Shown here piece after piece: positions 25,479 to 35,694 of a stretch of DNA of 40,000 bases. How positions within the stretch are numbered: the first letter of the stretch is position 1; each line of letters opens with the position of its first letter. Where the stretch lies: positions 2,148,000 through 2,187,999 of the forward strand of contig CAXXJJ010000001.1 in the NCBI GenBank assembly GCA_963667015.2, given 5' to 3'. The position numbers and the translations under genes were made by a program. The notes beneath the pieces were generated by a model. That model was given only the letters and a program-made list of their open reading frames with translations. It ran no database searches and had not been told where the DNA came from. The stretch comes from Desulfatiglandales bacterium. Lineage in GTDB: Bacteria > Desulfobacterota > DSM-4660 > Desulfatiglandales > HGW-15.

Positions 25479-26105
25479 CTAGGACAGCCAAACAATGAGT
25501 CTACTAGTGCGAACCCATTTTCCTTTGTCCTTTTTAAGGAGCCAAAAAGTTCCTGACCCCCATTTACCATCTTGAGAATTTTCGATATATACGATTGCTG
25601 CGTTTTTATCAGTATCAAAGCCCACTCGTGACAAACGAAAGTATCCAAGTGCATTTGGGTAATGCTTATAAAAAGAATCCCACCACTTTGTGGGGGAAAA
25701 AGCTTCTTCCCGTTGTTTTTCAGAGATAAGGAAATGTTTGTCTGCAAATTTGAAATAATCGTTTAGAATATATTGATCCTTGTTTTCGCTCACCCAAGAT
25801 TTCAAGGCATATTCTGGAAAAGATGTATTTTCAACCTCGATCTTTTTAAGCAACTCTTCAATTGATATATCCATGTATTTAGGGCCTGAAATTGTTTCAT
25901 TGATAATAATAATTGTCTTAGGAAGAAGTTGTTTTTCTTTTTTATTTATCATGTCTATATAGCCTGGCTGGCTTAGGTATTCAAGCTCGATCACTGCTTT
26001 ATAAACCTGATACTCTAACGGATCTATCTCTTCAGCATTTGCAGAGCAATATGAAATTATCATTAATATGAAAAAAAGCCTGATATTAAAGCGATGTGAT
26101 TTCAT
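25479..26105 (-). CDS. cassette ORF: secreted hypothetical protein
   Basis: Preferred start ATG 26105 (GGGGGA upstream) gives the signal peptide MKSHRFNIRLFFILMIISYCSANA. The track start 26117 (TTG) is less likely. Confidence 0.6.
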   Translation of the reverse strand: MKSHRFNIRLFFILMIISYCSANAEEIDPLEYQVYKAVIELEYLSQPGYIDMINKKEKQLLPKTIIIINETISGPKYMDISIEELLKKIEVENTSFPEYALKSWVSENKDQYILNDYFKFADKHFLISEKQREEAFSPTKWWDSFYKHYPNALGYFRLSRVGFDTDKNAAIVYIENSQDGKWGSGTFWLLKKDKGKWVRTSRLIVWLS

Positions 26106-26124
26106 TTTATCCCCCAAGCACCGG

Positions 26125-28424
26125 GTAGGGCAAGGGCTTCTCAGCCCCTTTCCCCCCTAAGAAACGTACGTGATAGTTTCCCATCATACGGCTCAAGCAT
26201 TTCACAAGGACGATCTTCTGGAACGCCCCGACTACGTTTCCCACTAATTAGCGTATAAAATCGCACGATTGGCTTTTGCCGTCAAGGCTGGTAATAATCG
26301 CTTCTCCTTATCATGCCTGCGTTGCCAAAAGTAACCGGCGTACTTCTTAAGGTAAGGATTAGCGTCTGCCTTGATTTTAATATGCCTTTTAATGCCCAAA
26401 TGGCCTAAGCGTAAAACGCTGTAGACTTTCTTCCCCAGCGTAGTTTTACCTACTGCGGAAAATACCCATTTTTTACCATCTACCATCCAGTACTTCTTAA
26501 CAAGCCATTTCTTTGACTTTCTTGGATGGCGTTTTCTGAGCATTCTCCATAACTGGTCATAGACATAACCGTCAATACGATAAAATGATGCTCCGGCTAC
26601 TACATGACGATGGTAGTTGCCCCAACCTCGAAGTACAGAGTTCAGTTCCTTTATCATGGCAGGCATTGGTGCACTGACGTATTTGCGGATTATTCCGCCG
26701 AGGCGTTGTATCAATGATTCTACGCCCTCTTTTGAAGGCCTTATGTGCAATGTCTTGCCGTGTTTCCGGAATGTTTGTCCCAGAAACATAAAACTGTCCC
26801 GGATATGTGTGATGGCAGTCTTTTGCTCAGAGAGATTTAATCCTCTTTCTCTTAAGAATTCTACGACCGCCGGCTTTACCTGTTTTTCTAAAAGCCTTCT
26901 GGATTTCCCTGTGATGATAAAATCATCCGCATAACGAATAAAATTTACTCTGGATCTACGCGGGACTGATTTATGTACAGCTTCTTCCAGTCCGTCCAGA
27001 ACCATATTCATTAACGTAGGGCTTATAATACCTCCCTGTGGTGTTCCTCTTCGGGTTGGATATCTTATCCCTTTTTCCACAAATCCTGCCTTCAACCACT
27101 TGGCCAGTATTTCTTTATCCATTGGGATGTTTGCCAGCATCCACTCATGCGATATGTTGTCAAAACATCCTTCAATGTCGGCTTCAAGCACCCACGTTGC
27201 GGAGTTTGGCTTGTTTAAGGCATTGAATGCCGCTCCTACTGCATCGGCACAGCTCCGCCCCTCTCTAAATCCATATGAGTTGCGGTCAGCTAATGTTTCT
27301 GCTATAGGAGCTAAAGCAAGTTTGTACAATGCCTGCATTGCCCTGTCATACATTGTAGGTATACTTAAAGGACGTTTCTTTTTACTTCTCTTTTTAGAAA
27401 TATACGTCCTTCTAAGCGGTTGAGGTCTGTAACCTCTTTTGTGCAGGCTGTTAGCAGCCTGCCATTTGGTTTTGGCGCCTTTCCATAAGATGCCGTCAAT
27501 GCCGGGTGTTTTCTTACCCTTATTAGTAGTCACTCTTTTTACTGCCAGAAGCTTGGCAGCTCTTGAGCGTGTGAGCAGATATTGTAATGATTTAACCTTA
27601 TTCCATCTGCCTTCCTGCGTAGCCTTTGCGATACGCATCTGCAGCCGTCTAACCTTTTTCCGCTCTGCTGTCCAGTCCACGCTGTTCCAGCATGCGGAGT
27701 CTGACTTCTTATCTTGGCTTTTGAGTGCACCAGCCGAAGCTGTCTTTTGCTTTCTCATCTACAACGGTTCTCCAGATTATCTCGCAAGGAAACACCAGTC
27801 GGATGTCTGCCCCCATTTCGGTATTCCTTTGACTCCTTCTACCTTTTAGGACTGCCATGTTTCATGCAGTATCCTTCCCGCTACAGGAAGGCATTTGCTT
27901 GTTCCGACCTCTCATTGCCGACCCTCCATGGGCTTGCCTTATACGGTTAGCTTGCCATGCATTGCGTGACATGGCGGACTGCCGGCTTTTCCACGTTCCG
28001 CATAATCACCTTAAATGAATAACTTAGGTGGTACCTGTACGCCGATGGCTTGTGTTCCCGCATGGGCACGTTAGAAACCCATGACCACACCACATCTATC
28101 CGCCCAGAGGGATAGATCTTCGACCTTTATCCTGAAGTCAGGAAGTTAGCTCTCGTAGGTCTAGACTTTTATGACGACGCTTAAGGTCTTTGATTAATCT
28201 CACCATATTATCCAGCCCTCGCCCTTAACCCGGTAGAGCTCCGGGATGGGTTCGCCTGTCACCATTTGAACCCGTTTCGGTACTTTGTCCACGGGGCTTC
28301 ACACTCTGTCATACGCGCAACAGCAGCATGCCCGTGTAGGGGACTGGAGGGGACGCTCCAGGTGTTGCCATGTATGGTGTAACCTCATGGTCAACACATA
28401 TGATTATGCGACATCGTGTCGCAA
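26125..28424 (-). mobile_element. group II intron (sense to the cassettes), full length
   Basis: RT/maturase ORF in domain IV. Domain V gagccgtatgatgggaaactatcacgtacgtttc is the reverse complement of 26161-26194, followed by a domain VI-like stem ending ...ccctac. The 5' end abuts the attC core as CCGTTAT|TTGCGACACG. Boundaries +/-5 nt. Confidence 0.75.
26244..27758 (-). CDS. group II intron reverse transcriptase/maturase
   Basis: 504 aa. RT blocks ...LSIPTMYDRAMQ..., ...GTPQGGIISPTL..., FIRYADDFIITG (YADD), and maturase X-like ...LRGWGNYHRH.... No HNH endonuclease tail is evident. Confidence 0.9.
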   Translation of the reverse strand: MRKQKTASAGALKSQDKKSDSACWNSVDWTAERKKVRRLQMRIAKATQEGRWNKVKSLQYLLTRSRAAKLLAVKRVTTNKGKKTPGIDGILWKGAKTKWQAANSLHKRGYRPQPLRRTYISKKRSKKKRPLSIPTMYDRAMQALYKLALAPIAETLADRNSYGFREGRSCADAVGAAFNALNKPNSATWVLEADIEGCFDNISHEWMLANIPMDKEILAKWLKAGFVEKGIRYPTRRGTPQGGIISPTLMNMVLDGLEEAVHKSVPRRSRVNFIRYADDFIITGKSRRLLEKQVKPAVVEFLRERGLNLSEQKTAITHIRDSFMFLGQTFRKHGKTLHIRPSKEGVESLIQRLGGIIRKYVSAPMPAMIKELNSVLRGWGNYHRHVVAGASFYRIDGYVYDQLWRMLRKRHPRKSKKWLVKKYWMVDGKKWVFSAVGKTTLGKKVYSVLRLGHLGIKRHIKIKADANPYLKKYAGYFWQRRHDKEKRLLPALTAKANRAILYAN

Positions 28425-28553
28425 ATAACGGTGAAGTTAAGGAGCCTGGCGGTTTTATGGCAACTAGCCTCATGCTCCCAAGATACTTGTTAATATTGAT
28501 TTTGCTCCGCTTGGCGATATAGTAGCCAGGTCACCTTGAACTATTGGTTAAGT
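28425..28553 (-). other. attC site (family B relative) immediately upstream (cassette sense) of the sense intron
   Basis: ATAACG gtgaagttaaggagcctggcgg ... ggcgatatagtagccaggtcaccttgaactattg GTTAAGT. The arms ggagcctggc / gccaggtcacc are complementary. Confidence 0.7.
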
Positions 28554-28949
28554 GTTTTTAGATGTTGAATTTACCTCAAGAAGACCGAAACTATTACCGT
28601 CTTCACTTATTCCATGAGCTGTTACAGGAACATCCAAATAGGCAAAATATATTTTACCCAAGTTAGTTTTAGGATGCCTTACAAAAAGATGATAACTAGA
28701 ACCGTTTGGAATATATTTTTCAAGTTTTTCTAGCAGGCTCTCAACATTTATTGTTTTATTTTGTTTATTGGTATCATCATATAGGATGATATTTATTTCT
28801 TCTCCATCTTCATCAATTTCAAGATCCTTGATTGGTAGTTCCATAAAATCATCTTTTAATTTTGGATTTTCTCTAATTACAAAGACATTGTAATCTTTGA
28901 TACCATCTATATTCTTTCGAATCTCATTTATAAGATATGATATTTCCAT
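28548..28949 (-). CDS. cassette ORF: hypothetical protein
   Basis: 133 aa. The TAA stop is inside the attC core. No family recognised. Confidence 0.55.
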   Translation of the reverse strand: MEISYLINEIRKNIDGIKDYNVFVIRENPKLKDDFMELPIKDLEIDEDGEEINIILYDDTNKQNKTINVESLLEKLEKYIPNGSSYHLFVRHPKTNLGKIYFAYLDVPVTAHGISEDGNSFGLLEVNSTSKNT

Positions 28950-30748: not shown

Positions 30749-30813
30749 GCATAACGGTGCCCTTAACATGCCGGGCGGCGTTTCATCGCCCGGTCATAGT
30801 TGAAGGGCGGGTT
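30749..30813 (-). other. attC site interrupted by two group II introns (remaining 6-7 nt at 35028-35034)
   Basis: ATAACG gtgcccttaacatgccgggcggcgtttcatcgcccggtcatagttgaagggcgGGTT | introns | ATGTCAT. Joining the flanks restores GGTTATG, the right-core form seen at other sites. Confidence 0.75.
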
Positions 30814-32922
30814 GTGTGCCGGGCTGGCCCGGCTGCTAAATGGTGATGCGGAGGTATTTTGACACAAATACACTGCAAAGTCCATATCCAGGCTGACGGA
30901 GCCGAAGGATAGTCGAGGGCAAGGGTACTGAAAGGAATATGTGCCTGAAGGAAGCCTAAGACAAAAGCGTGGGTTGACGTACAGGTATGCCCCGTACCTT
31001 AACTGGTAGAGGGCAGGCAGATTAGGCTGGGGGATGTCGGGACGAGTCCGCAACACAGGATAAAGTCCTATATCCGTTACATGGCTGAACCAAGTATATC
31101 TGACAATCGTGCGCTGAAAGTAGCCGAGGCTTACCCCGGGAGGTCCACTGCGTCTCAGAAGATCTATCGCTGTAAGCTACCGGAATATTGGGAAAACCGG
31201 TTAAAAAAAAATCCCGGCATCATTATGGCCGGGCGTCCCGGCAAATGATGAGCCTGTCCTGCAGGGCAGGGCAAACAAACAGAGGGCGCAGGCGGTAGAA
31301 ACCAATGAGTGACCAAACCGCAAGGGGAGACTATCGCGTAGTGGGAGTCAGCAGAGGGCATAATAGTTTCTGAGTACAGTCGGTACTAAGGAATAAGGCC
31401 CGAACGGTGCCACCTGTCGAATGGCAGGGGTAAATGAGAGAGGTTATTAGGAGACGAGTCTAATGAAATCATCGCGGCAGTGGAAACAACTTGAGTTGTA
31501 CTCGATAGATCCCGGCCCAAGGGCTAAAACGGATACGAGTTCCGAAGATTTTATTGCGTCGCGTCTATCCGAAAGCCCGACAGGTCAGATCCGGCTCATG
31601 GAGTCAATCTGTGAGCGGAGCAACATGAGACGCGCTATCAAGCGGGTCATCAAGAACAAGGGAGCCCCCGGTGTGGATGGTATGACCGTCAGCAAGATAG
31701 ACAGGTATTATCAAAGGCACCGGGACAAGATCGAAAAGGCCCTGCTGGAGGGAACGTATATGCCCATGCCGGTATTACAAAAGGAGATTGATAAACCGGA
31801 CGGCGGAACCCGCCTTCTCGGGATTCCTACTGTGCTGGACAGGGTGATTCAGCAGGCAGTGGCTCAGGTATTTACAAGTATCTGGGATTATACCTTTTCG
31901 GAGATGAGCTTTGGCTTCCGCCCAGAACGCTCTCAGCATGGTGCTGTTCGTCAGTACCGGGAGTATCTGAGGGCAGGGTATAAGTATGTGGTTGATATTG
32001 ATATATCCAAATTCTTTGACAGGGTAAACCATGACAGGCTAATGAGCCGTCTTGCTGCCAGGGTCAAGGATAAGAGGGTATTGAAACTAATCCGCAGGTT
32101 TCTGACATCCGGTGTAATGATCGGAGGTCTTGTAGAGCCAATGAGAGAGGGTACGCCCCAGGGCGGCCCACTTTCCCCCTTGCTCAGTAATATTGTTCTT
32201 GATGAACTGGATAAAGAGCTTGAAAAGCGTGGTCTTCGTTTTGTCCGGTATGCTGATGACTGTGTCATATTTGTCAAAAGCAAACCGGCAGCGAATCGAG
32301 TGATGAGTAGTATAACCCGGTTTATAGAAAAGAAGTTGAGATTAAAGGTGAACCGGGAAAAGAGCGCCATTAGCCTCCCATGGAAAAGTAAGTATCTGGG
32401 ATTCTGCGTAACAAACTCAAGCACGAATCCCAAGATACGTATTCATTGGAAGAGTATCAAGAGGTTTAAGGAGCGGGTAAAGGAAATTACAGCCCGCAAT
32501 AGAGGGCGCAGTATTGTGCAGGTGATCAAAGAGCTTAATGATTATATGAGAGGTTGGTGGAACTATTATGGTATTACCGAGTCCTACAACCGAATAAAGC
32601 TCTTGCCCAGTTGGATCAGGCGACGCCTTCGGGCTGTTATCTGGAAACACTGGAAGAACCGCAGAACCCGTGTAGGTGAACTCCTCAAAAGAGGAGTTAG
32701 AAAAGATGAAGCTGTTACTACAGGATGTGCCCGAAAGGGTCCATGGAGAATGAGCAGAGTTGAATGGGTTCAGTATGCACTACCTAATAAATACTTTTCA
32801 TCACTTGGGCTTGTGTTCCCCTGGAACTGATTTCTGCCTTGGATCAGCCGAACCGCGTTGTACGGACCCGTATGCTGCGTGGTGTGGGAGGGAGTAGTCG
32901 CGAGGCTACTTCCTATCCCGAT
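30814..32922 (+). mobile_element. group II intron, class C-like, copy 1 (antisense to cassettes)
   Basis: Starts GTGTGCC (GUGYG). Domain V-like helix at ~32851-32884 with CGC at the triad position. Domain VI gggagggagtag...ctacttcctAtccc has a bulged A 7 nt from the end ...cccgat. Confidence 0.8.
31463..32830 (+). CDS. group II intron reverse transcriptase/maturase (copy 1)
   Basis: 455 aa. ...LGIPTVLDRVIQQA..., GTPQGGPLSPLL, FVRYADDCVIF (YADD), and maturase block RGWWNYYG. No endonuclease domain. Confidence 0.9.
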   Translation: MKSSRQWKQLELYSIDPGPRAKTDTSSEDFIASRLSESPTGQIRLMESICERSNMRRAIKRVIKNKGAPGVDGMTVSKIDRYYQRHRDKIEKALLEGTYMPMPVLQKEIDKPDGGTRLLGIPTVLDRVIQQAVAQVFTSIWDYTFSEMSFGFRPERSQHGAVRQYREYLRAGYKYVVDIDISKFFDRVNHDRLMSRLAARVKDKRVLKLIRRFLTSGVMIGGLVEPMREGTPQGGPLSPLLSNIVLDELDKELEKRGLRFVRYADDCVIFVKSKPAANRVMSSITRFIEKKLRLKVNREKSAISLPWKSKYLGFCVTNSSTNPKIRIHWKSIKRFKERVKEITARNRGRSIVQVIKELNDYMRGWWNYYGITESYNRIKLLPSWIRRRLRAVIWKHWKNRRTRVGELLKRGVRKDEAVTTGCARKGPWRMSRVEWVQYALPNKYFSSLGLVFPWN

Positions 32923-35027
32923 GTGTGCCGGGCTGGTCCGGCTGCTAAATGGTGATGCGGAGGTATTTTGACACAAATACACTGCAAAGTCCATATCCAG
33001 GCTGACGGAGCCGAAGGATAGTCGAGGGCAAGGGTACTGAAAGGAATATGTGCCTGAAGGAAGCCTAAGACAAAAGCGTGGGTTGACGTACAGGTATGCC
33101 CCGTACCTTAACTGGTAGAGGGCAGGCAGATTAGGCTGGGGGATGTCGGGACGAGTCCGCAACACAGGATAAAGTCCTATATCCGTTACATGGCTGAACC
33201 AAGTATATCTGACAATCGTGCGCTGAAAGTAGCCGAGGCTTACCCCGGGAGGTCCATTGCGTCTCAGAAGATCTATCGCTGTAAGCTACCGGAATATCGG
33301 GAAAACCGGAAAAAAATCCCCGGCATCAAATGACCGGGCGTCCCGGCAAATGATGAGCCTGTCCTGCAGGGCAGGGTAAACAAACAGAGGGCGCAGGCGG
33401 TAGAAACCAATGAGTGATCAAACCGCAAGGGGAGACTATCGCGTAGTGGGAGTCAGCAGAGGGCATAATAGTTCCTGAGTACAGTCGGTACTAAGGAATA
33501 AGGCCCGAACGGTGCCACCTGTCGAATGGCAGGGGTAAATGAGAGAGGTTAATAGGAGACGAGTCTAATGAAATCATGGCGGCAGTGGAAACAACTTGAG
33601 TTGTACTCGATAGATCCCGGCCCAAGGGCTAAAACGGATACGAGTTCCGAAGATTTTATTGCGTCACGTTTATCCGAAAGCCCGACAGGTCAGATCCGGC
33701 TCATGGAGTCAATCTGTGAGCGGAACAACATGAGACGCGCTATCAGGCGGGTCATCAAGAACAAGGGAGCCCCCGGTGTGGACGGCATGACCGTCAGCAA
33801 GATAGTCAGGTATTATCAAAGGCACCGGGACAAGATCGAAAAGGCCCTGCTGGATGGAACATATATGCCCATGCCGGTGTTACAAAAGGAGATTGAAAAA
33901 CCGGACGGCGGAATCCGCCTTCTCGGGATTCCCACAGTACTGGACAGGGTGATTCAGCAGGCAGTGGCTCAGGTATTTACAAGTATCTGGGATTATACCT
34001 TTTCGGAGATGAGCTTTGGCTTCCGCCCAGAACGCTCCCAGCACGGTGCTGTTCGTCAGTACCGAGAGTATCTGAGGGCAGGGTATAAGTATGTGGTTGA
34101 TATTGATATATCCAAATTCTTTGACAGGGTAAATCATGACAGACTAATGAGTCGTCTTGCTACCCGGATAAAGGATAAGAGGGTATTGAAGCTCATCCGC
34201 AGGTTTCTGACATCCGGTGTAATGATTGGAGGTCTTGTAGAGCCAATGAGAGAGGGTACACCTCAAGGCGGCCCACTTTCCCCCTTGCTCAGTAATATTG
34301 TTCTTGATGAACTGGATAAAGAGCTTGAAAAGCGTGGTCTTCGTTTTGTCCGGTATGCTGATGACTGTGTCATATTTGTCAAAAGCAAACCGGCAGCGAA
34401 TCGAGTGATGAGTAGTATAACCCGGTTTATAGAAAAGAAGTTGAGATTAAAGGTGAACCGGGAAAAGAGCGCCATTAGCCTCCCATGGAAAAGTAAGTAT
34501 CTGGGATTCTGCGTAACAAACTCAAGCACGAATCCCAAGATACGTATTCATTGGAAGAGTATCAAGAGGTTTAAGGAGCGGGTAAAGGAAATTACAGCCC
34601 GCAATAGAGGGCGCAGTATTGTGCAGGTGATCAAAGAGCTTAATGATTATATGAGAGGTTGGTGGAACTATTATGGTATTACCGAGTCCTACAACCGAAT
34701 AAAGCTCTTGCCCAGTTGGATCAGGCGACGCCTTCGGGCTGTTATCTGGAAACACTGGAAGAACCGCAGAACCCGTGTAGGTGAACTCCTCAAAAGAGGA
34801 GTTAGAAAAGATGAAGCTGTTACTACCGGATGTGCCCGAAAGGGGCCATGGAGAATGAGCAGAGTTGAATGGGTTCAGTATGCACTACCTAATAAATACT
34901 TTTCATCACTTGGGCTTGTGTTCCCCTGGAACTGATTACTGCCTTGGATCAGCCGAACCGCGTTGTACGGACCCGTATGCTGCGTGGTGTGGGAGGGAGT
35001 AGTCGTGAGGCTACTTCCTATCCCGAT
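32923..35027 (+). mobile_element. group II intron, class C-like, copy 2, directly abutting copy 1
   Basis: GTGTGCC begins at the nucleotide after copy 1 ends (...cccgat|gtgtgcc). It has the same 3' end ...cccgat followed by atgtcat (the attC remainder). Confidence 0.8.
33568..34935 (+). CDS. group II intron reverse transcriptase/maturase (copy 2)
   Basis: 455 aa. Differs from copy 1 at about ten residues, all in the first ~205 aa. Confidence 0.9.
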   Translation: MKSWRQWKQLELYSIDPGPRAKTDTSSEDFIASRLSESPTGQIRLMESICERNNMRRAIRRVIKNKGAPGVDGMTVSKIVRYYQRHRDKIEKALLDGTYMPMPVLQKEIEKPDGGIRLLGIPTVLDRVIQQAVAQVFTSIWDYTFSEMSFGFRPERSQHGAVRQYREYLRAGYKYVVDIDISKFFDRVNHDRLMSRLATRIKDKRVLKLIRRFLTSGVMIGGLVEPMREGTPQGGPLSPLLSNIVLDELDKELEKRGLRFVRYADDCVIFVKSKPAANRVMSSITRFIEKKLRLKVNREKSAISLPWKSKYLGFCVTNSSTNPKIRIHWKSIKRFKERVKEITARNRGRSIVQVIKELNDYMRGWWNYYGITESYNRIKLLPSWIRRRLRAVIWKHWKNRRTRVGELLKRGVRKDEAVTTGCARKGPWRMSRVEWVQYALPNKYFSSLGLVFPWN

Positions 35028-35694
35028 ATGTCATGTCTTTGATTGTAATCATATTTCCATCATGGAATATTACAGTATCTCCAATATAGATAATCTCATT
35101 ATTATCATGAAATATTGCCGAACCATCTGTGATTGAAACGATATCATGCTCAATACCTTTGGAATATTCACTGACTTTTTCGATAAAAGATGTTTCCATA
35201 TTATTAAAGTGTGGTAAAAATTCATAATTGACAATGTTAAGGGCTTGATAATTAGAGTGATCACGTATGACTTGTTCAACTGTCTCTGTTACCAGGCGAA
35301 ATAATGAAACATTTTTTGTAAACTGCATCGATCCACCACTTGCACCCATTATCAAAAGGTCTTCAGCTATTAAATTGAGTAAACGTGACTCTAAACCAGT
35401 TTGAAGAATATTTTCCCTAAAACTTATTGGATTCCCACCTGTTAAATAAATGACATCATATTTATTAAGGTCATCTAATTGCCTTTCATCAAGATCTTCA
35501 TCAATGTCTATAAAATCCAGATTTGTAAAACCAAATGATTTAAAATGCCTTTTAGCTTTAGGAAAACGTTCATGCCCCTCTTTACTAAATGGAGGTATCC
35601 AGGCAATACGAGGATTTGTGCCTTTACTTCTGATGTGTTCTAAAATAATTTCATTTCTTGATAAAGGAAAGTCACTTGTAAGCAATAATTTCAC
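35011..35694 (-). CDS. cassette ORF: peptidase E (S51)-like / class I glutamine amidotransferase-like protein, C-terminus altered by intron insertion
   Basis: ...YDVIYLTGGNPISF... and ...IMGASGGSMQF... resemble S51 dipeptidase E blocks. The last 5 codons (YRDRK*) are read from intron sequence. Without the introns the ORF would end ...KDMT-TAA using the attC core. Confidence 0.65.
   Translation of the reverse strand: MKLLLTSDFPLSRNEIILEHIRSKGTNPRIAWIPPFSKEGHERFPKAKRHFKSFGFTNLDFIDIDEDLDERQLDDLNKYDVIYLTGGNPISFRENILQTGLESRLLNLIAEDLLIMGASGGSMQFTKNVSLFRLVTETVEQVIRDHSNYQALNIVNYEFLPHFNNMETSFIEKVSEYSKGIEHDIVSITDGSAIFHDNNEIIYIGDTVIFHDGNMITIKDMTYRDRK

Follow-up and report, generated by a model that had tools for sequence, protein, structure and literature searches.

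A sense-oriented group II intron with UUGCG...GGU ends in an attC core of a Desulfatiglandales cassette array

To our knowledge, the textbook account of group II introns found at attC, the recombination sites of integron cassette arrays, is that they belong to class C and lie antisense to the cassettes. A first-pass annotation of the DNA studied here gave the same orientation rule, which is incomplete: UHB.I2, a group IIB1/CL1 intron from the Tanatar-5 soda-lake metagenome, is sense-oriented and has 5′-UUGCG..GU-3′ ends (Sonbol and Siam 2021, Mob DNA 12:8, PMC7923331). Full-text literature searches found no further paper on UHB.I2. Here we describe an intron of this kind, published once so far, on the minus strand of a 40,000-nucleotide (nt) stretch of the genome of a Desulfatiglandales bacterium (assembly GCA_963667015.2, contig CAXXJJ010000001.1, positions 2,148,000 to 2,187,999; hereafter the window). 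From sequence comparison we consider it very likely that this intron is intact, was active recently and belongs to a chloroplast-like (CL1-type) group IIB lineage without an endonuclease, whose members retrohome to attC sites by inserting into the top (cassette-sense) strand of the R′ core.

Rfam matches and a domain search bear out the first-pass description of a minus-strand group II intron carrying a 504-amino-acid (aa) reverse transcriptase (RT) with a YADD motif and no endonuclease domain, and the sequence holds the domain V with an AGC triad that had been described (Table 1). To define the 5′ end, as that annotation had suggested, we compared the intron's copies in the source genome (7.19 Mb, 4 contigs). 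There are four, three of them identical across 2305 nt and the remaining one different at a single base, in domain VI, which rules out a chance match; the flanks of all four differ, upstream and downstream alike. With slashes at the intron's ends, the window copy reads caccGTTAT/intron/GCTTGGGGG (the 3′ exon starts GCTTGG), and the others read cagcGTTAT/intron/GCACAAAA (3′ exon starting GCACAA), caacGTTGG/intron/CGTGCTG and tatcGTTAG/intron/CCAAAAG. The base preceding TTGCG is T, T, G and G in the four copies, and the base following CCCGGT is G, G, C and C. Because the neighbouring bases vary at both ends, the mobile unit is exactly 28424..26120, from UUGCG to GGU. All four copies begin UUGCG, and the 5′ junction in the window, caccGTTAT/TTGCGACACG in cassette sense, lies exactly where the first-pass annotation had put it. 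The 3′ end was rightly placed next to a cassette open reading frame (ORF) but fell 5 nt short: the copies' common sequence and the RF00029 alignment both stop at 26120, not 26125, and the leader up to the ATG, which does contain the expected GGGGGA, is 14 nt long rather than 19. The domain V catalytic triad and the domain VI bulged A that mark a group II intron are both present, and the consensus GUGYG/AY ends are absent. The bulged A lies 7 nt from the intron 3′ end, the normal spacing, and A26126 is presumably the branch point. That near-identical copies stand in unrelated flanks suggests that the intron has spread by retrohoming, and recently.

In the RT, the RVT_N, RVT_1 and GIIM domains all score above their cut-offs and the ORF is open; the domain search found no HNH or other endonuclease domain in the 504 aa. 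The best match of this protein in the PDB is 6ME0_C, the CL1 RT of T.el4h/Th.e.I3 (E 4e-159, 533 bits), with LtrA and GsI-IIC at about 140 bits. The class of the Th.e.I3/T.el4h RT is published (PMC8643678), and the RT of UHB.I2, with whose intron-encoded protein (IEP) the window RT shares 50% identity, was likewise put in CL1 by its authors (PMC7923331). The proteins of ~500 aa from introns inserted in attC make up a single clade of the RT tree (support 100/100), which includes the window RT and its 90% relative, encoded in a genome of the same genus. Two tandem class C introns are also present in the window, on the plus strand (30749-35034), directly after the bottom strand of the attC at 30817..30749; the RT of the window's own class C lineage is a distant outgroup in the tree (branch length 4.5), and domain I of the minus-strand intron matches RF02012, not the class C family RF02001. 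The lineage is thus distinct from that of the plus-strand introns, as had been proposed, and by these comparisons the window intron does not belong with the class C introns of attC sites: its ribozyme family, RT, strand and orientation all differ.

The cassettes of the array are encoded on the minus strand and the intron is therefore in the sense orientation, so the proposed insertion at an attC/cassette junction, co-oriented with the cassettes, stands. When the exons are rejoined, R′ reads GTTAT^GC and the L″/L′ stem pairs with bulged bases. Inverted R″/R′ cores (RYYYAAC/GTTRRRY) around an imperfect L″/L′ stem, recurring between promoterless ORFs, are the hallmark of attC sites in integron arrays. 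Each of the four copies is placed after CGTTRN, three of them in a clear attC, inside the R′ core and on the cassette-sense strand. The attC call for the window site is based on its architecture and on its family resemblance to the attC upstream of other copies, as sites of the same long family lie upstream of L002, L003 and L017. Along the minus strand of the window, between 39950 and 20385, there are at least 11 other attC hairpins, every one with CGTT[AG]; two of them, with the end GTTATGC, are empty twins of the target. A fuzzy search with the 3′ arm of the window attC, allowing up to 6 mismatches, returned the occupied site only, which is explained by the diversity of attCs within the array. 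IntI crosses over in attC at G^TT. The insertion point lies 4 nt 3′ of this crossover, which makes the intron the leading element of the cassette downstream. No intI adjoins the array; since the sole IntI above the curated cut-off lies on another contig (C4:2909271-2910209), the array belongs to the type of cluster of attC sites lacking integron-integrases (CALIN).

Metagenome contigs were scanned by pattern with the conserved 5′ 22-mer, which yielded at least 118 distinct flanks; at least 77 distinct flanks adjoin introns that begin TTGCG, with a common CGTTR target. Among the 77 listed UUGCG flanks, C stands at position −6 in 61, G at −5 in 66, T at −4 in 75 and at −3 in 66, and a purine (A or G) at −2 in 69. 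Six ORF-less derivatives of 769-890 nt are also found at attC R′ cores (L104, L117, L140, L148, L160 and L189). Members that begin GTGCG are of two kinds, one located in a conserved protein gene and encoding longer IEPs, the other located at attC sites and encoding proteins of ~500 aa. Ten loci with the same 5′ 22-mer and GUGCG..GAC ends (L100, L110, L115, L119, L134, L153, L183, L185, L203 and L209) occupy a single conserved protein-gene position, where the exon encodes ..RYVTEGTFDAYLW, and have IEPs of ~557 aa. The IEPs of the canonical relatives that we checked span 546-665 aa, with an HNH domain in one, of 603 aa. The source genome itself holds a further attC-inserted intron without an endonuclease domain (L005, C1:~367130-369431), 68% identical to the window intron, which runs from GGGCG to GAU and carries an open RT ORF of 501 aa; it is preceded by ..ttcGTTGGG, and its attC belongs to the same long family as the window attC.

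To locate the exon-binding sites (EBS), we aligned domains I-III of 20 related introns. The loop homologous to window positions 28080..28065 complements each canonical relative's own 5′ exon (loop/exon pairs GUUGUA/UACAAC, UCUCAG/CUGAGA and GCAUCG/CGAUGC), which identifies it as EBS1. In the window intron this EBS1, CUAACG, is complementary to the attC-derived CGUUAG. The local intron-binding sites (IBS1) are CGUUAG, CGUUGG and, twice, CGUUAU, so that EBS1–IBS1 pairing is perfect in one of the four copies, has one wobble in another and one mismatch in the other two. Among the relatives, loops of the form ..CUAACGUG go with insertion after GTTRN and loops of the form ..UCUAACUG with insertion after GTTRRN (L196, for example, where GTTAGA is a perfect match). 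Specifically, a shift of the EBS1 register by 1 nt (CUAACG/UCUAAC) moves the insertion point by 1 nt, and this covariation provides the strongest evidence that pairing probably sets the site. The position of EBS2 was deduced from that in a relative, L023 (GAAGUC/GAUUUC); by an EBS2–IBS2 complementarity statistic, even the canonical relatives do not rise above shuffles. An AGUUA loop (~28022), considered as an EBS2 for a TAACT motif in the exon, was rejected: it lies 3′ of EBS1 and is conserved clade-wide (CUAAGUYAUUC).

A folded attC hairpin could instead be what mainly picks the target, as with class C introns, which use terminator or attC stem-loops, and the pairing with CGTTR would then be minor. 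Sonbol and Siam raised this idea (PMC7923331), and it agrees with the seeming loss of EBS2 pairing and with the lack of an endonuclease domain, a feature compatible with single-stranded targets. By a simple inner-hairpin test, 57% of the listed UUGCG flanks, versus 3% of shuffled ones, had an attC-like hairpin whose end lay just before the insertion site. A hairpin does not account for the insertion point that moves with the EBS1 register, however, nor for the copy L004, which has a perfect IBS1 and no good hairpin. In addition, the top-strand bases of IBS1 belong to the R″/R′ stem, so that folding would be expected to compete with pairing. We consider hairpin-led targeting unlikely.

It is also conceivable that the copies did not retrohome at all but were carried in cassettes that were duplicated or moved by IntI, with the attC adjacency a consequence of cassette structure. 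The intron begins 4 nt inside the downstream cassette, and IntI could in principle co-move both. The downstream ORFs and the upstream cassettes of the four copies are unrelated, however, the repeat stops exactly at the intron ends and excludes both attC and the crossover TT, and L004 lies outside a clear attC. On this evidence, spread by cassette movement is very improbable, and retrohoming of the intron itself better describes how the copies arose.

The ends of the intron vary together. Introns that begin UUGCG have a 3′ GGU in 14 of 15 cases, and those that begin GUGCG have a 3′ GAY in 17 of 17; among the matches listed, L189 alone combines U1 with a 3′ GAU. Both types have a final U within the attC clade, where only the first and penultimate nucleotides differ, as G1/A versus U1/G. 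All 22 rows of the RT tree obey this end-pairing rule, with three changes at each end that coincide. The end pair thus appears to have flipped at least three times on the tree; in independent contrasts, all three pairs go in the same direction, too few for significance (p = 0.25). The first and penultimate intron nucleotides contact each other in the second splicing step (PMC3669008, PMC4238363), and we infer that U1 with a penultimate G is a working substitute for the G1/penultimate-A contact. The first-pass annotation had suggested that UUGCG may point to impaired splicing of this copy or to a 5′ boundary placed wrongly. Such damage, with the true GUGYG start lying elsewhere, might be argued from the departure of both ends from GUGYG...AY and from the possibly degenerate L005 with its GGGCG start, but it is hardly credible when four near-identical copies share exactly TTGCG...CCCGGT beside variable neighbouring bases, UUGCG recurs in 77 listed independent contexts, the compensating GGU changes in step with it, the RT ORF is open and the domains are complete. 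By these comparisons, UUGCG is a normal, compensated trait of the lineage and no defect, since it occurs in many contexts with a matching 3′ change and in near-identical copies that seem to have been mobile recently.

In the mechanism that we propose, a spliced lariat ribonucleoprotein would reverse-splice into attC DNA, guided mainly by EBS1–IBS1 pairing and to a small extent by EBS2 and EBS3. Because the protein is without an endonuclease, priming of cDNA synthesis would be replication-dependent. The intron would thereby head the cassette downstream as its first element, leaving the upstream stop codon and the downstream ribosome-binding site and ATG undisturbed, and could be removed from array transcripts by splicing, in which the U1/penultimate-G pair would functionally replace the usual contact.

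Several observations weigh against this interpretation of the intron as an intact CL1-type element homing to attC by EBS1 pairing. The GC skew (the plus strand of contig C1 is G-rich from 0.3 Mb on, and that of C4 is C-rich from 0.5 to 4.0 Mb) places the sense strand of all three informative copies, and of their arrays, on the C-rich (lagging) strand; the fourth copy is at the GC-skew minimum. The usual strand bias of endonuclease-less introns such as RmInt1 is opposite to that of these copies, and the proposed priming route is therefore tentative. The search for pairing with the exons that the first-pass annotation had suggested succeeds for EBS1 (CUAACG against CGTTAG), but the CGTTAT of two of the four local targets is mismatched with it at −1, EBS2–IBS2 pairing amounts to 3-4 bp only and is inconsistent, and the exon base at +1, which is G, G, C and C beside identical introns, yields no rule for EBS3. 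As to the site itself, the rejoined 131-nt attC folds no better than shuffles (z = −0.34), and the fourth copy (L004) has no convincing attC hairpin. Finally, the CL1 label is provisional, drawn from the closest RT of solved structure and from the published class of UHB.I2, which is only 50% identical.

The features of the locus and its surroundings are collected in Table 1. A promoter and terminator scan of the intron gave a site count no higher than in shuffles and indicated no outward promoter. A promoter-like TTGCCC-18-TAAAAT spans the intron/exon junction (26104-26133, minus strand), its −10 overlapping the start codon; it is probably meaningless. Elsewhere in the genome, a crude attC hairpin scan, which matched both strands, gave many singletons and served only to locate clusters, showed a dense attC-like cluster beside intI (C4, 2.911-2.943 Mb) and clusters without a nearby integrase on C1 (0.149, 0.365, 0.51, 1.93 and 2.17-2.19 Mb) and on C4 (3.10 and 3.59 Mb).

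Table 1. Coordinates of the intron, its insertion site and neighbouring features in the window
Feature	Position	Strand	Details and basis
Complete group II intron, 2305 nt	26120..28424	-	5′ UUGCGACACG ... CCCUACCCGGU 3′; ends from four genomic copies and Rfam matches
Non-canonical 5′ end UUGCG (consensus GUGYG)	28420..28424	-	
Domain I segment, Rfam group-II-D1D4-7 (RF02012)	28221..28362	-	74.9 bits, E 9.5e-14
EBS1 5′-CUAACG-3′, loop of hairpin CAUGGG...CCCAUG	28069..28074	-	Alignment of 20 introns
Intron-encoded protein, 504 aa, in domain IV	26244..27758	-	RVT_N + RVT_1 (YADD) + GIIM
Domains V and VI, Rfam RF00029	26196..26120	-	53.1 bits, gathering score 40
Domain V GAGCCGUAUGAUGGGAAACUAUCACGUACGUUUC, AGC triad	26161..26194	-	Sequence and Rfam
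Domain VI, bulged A at 26126	26123..26157	-	RF00029 alignment, sequence
Non-canonical 3′ end GGU (consensus AY)	26120..26122	-	Penultimate G and U1 covary
Upstream cassette ORF, 133 aa, no Pfam match	28548..28949	-	TAA stop inside attC R″ core
Split attC, 5′ part, top (cassette-sense) strand	28425..28553	-	Sequence; fold of rejoined site
attC R″, ACTTAAC	28553..28547	-	Overlaps upstream ORF stop codon
attC L″/L′ arms, AGTTcAAGG..CCTGGC / GCCAGG..CCTTAACT	within 28425..28553	-	
First five bases of R′, GTTAT	28429..28425	-	
IBS1 / 5′ exon end, CGTTAT	28430..28425	-	
3′ exon leader, 14 nt	26106..26119	-	GC at 26119..26118 completes R′ core GTTAT^GC
Ribosome-binding site GGGGGA	26115..26110	-	Inside the 14-nt leader
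Downstream cassette ORF, from ATG at 26105	25479..26105	-	N-terminus signal-peptide-like; no Pfam match
Unoccupied attC, R′ end caccGTTATGC	30749..30817	-	R′ end identical to rejoined target; empty-site comparator
Class C intron matches, RF02001	30927-31130 and 33036-33239	+	Rfam
Class C RT ORFs	31463..32830 and 33568..34935	+	

These results indicate that the textbook rule gives half the picture, as there is a second lineage, which inserts into the opposite strand of this recombination site. Insertion looks near-harmless to the host, as the stop codon upstream and the ribosome-binding site downstream are both left undisturbed, and it makes the intron part of a mobile cassette. As it appears to be guided mostly by an EBS1 of 5-6 nt, the intron is a simple case for minimal target recognition and may be of practical use. 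Although introns of the UUGCG lineage abound in metagenomes from sediments and saline habitats, only one instance is published. Going further, we lean, with some reservation, towards the view that U1/G is a fully functional natural alternative to G1/A, exchanged in both directions, three times or more, inside a single CL1 clade of endonuclease-less, attC-homing introns, which has mostly abandoned recognition by EBS2 and EBS3, lives on the CGTTR core of attC top strands and rides inside cassettes. If this is true, group II introns outside class C would have in integron arrays a major habitat that has mostly been overlooked. The joint change between U1 with G and G1 with A provides a natural experiment on the first–penultimate contact in the second splicing step.

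Comparison with described introns shows which traits are shared and which are particular to this one. The closest, UHB.I2, has the same 5′-UUGCG...GU-3′ ends and an endonuclease-less IEP of ~500 aa, lies immediately after or in an attC, co-oriented with the cassettes, and has an EBS1-type loop with ..GAACG.., matching a CGTTC target; it lies outside the well-supported core clade to which the window intron belongs. UHB.I2 is a single metagenomic copy, whereas the window intron is present in four copies in one genome, which define its ends and point to recent mobility. What is new here is a firm definition of boundary and target, together with evidence for covariation of the non-canonical ends. 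Group IIC-attC introns (S.ma.I2 and relatives, PMC3001079) similarly home to attC, have no endonuclease domain and use a short IBS1, but they have a class C RNA (RF02001), a class C RT and canonical boundaries, and they insert into the bottom strand, antisense to the cassettes. Th.e.I3/T.el4h and EcI5 (IIB1, with CL1 RTs; PDB 6ME0; PMC8643678) carry the EBS1 hairpin in the same place in domain I; unlike the window intron, they recognize gene targets through the full EBS1/EBS2/EBS2a/EBS3 set and have GUGYG..AY ends. RmInt1 (class D, IIB3) also has no endonuclease domain and is active with a non-consensus 3′ end, CC (PMC4238363), but differs in its RT class, its target (ISRm2011-2) and its canonical 5′ end.

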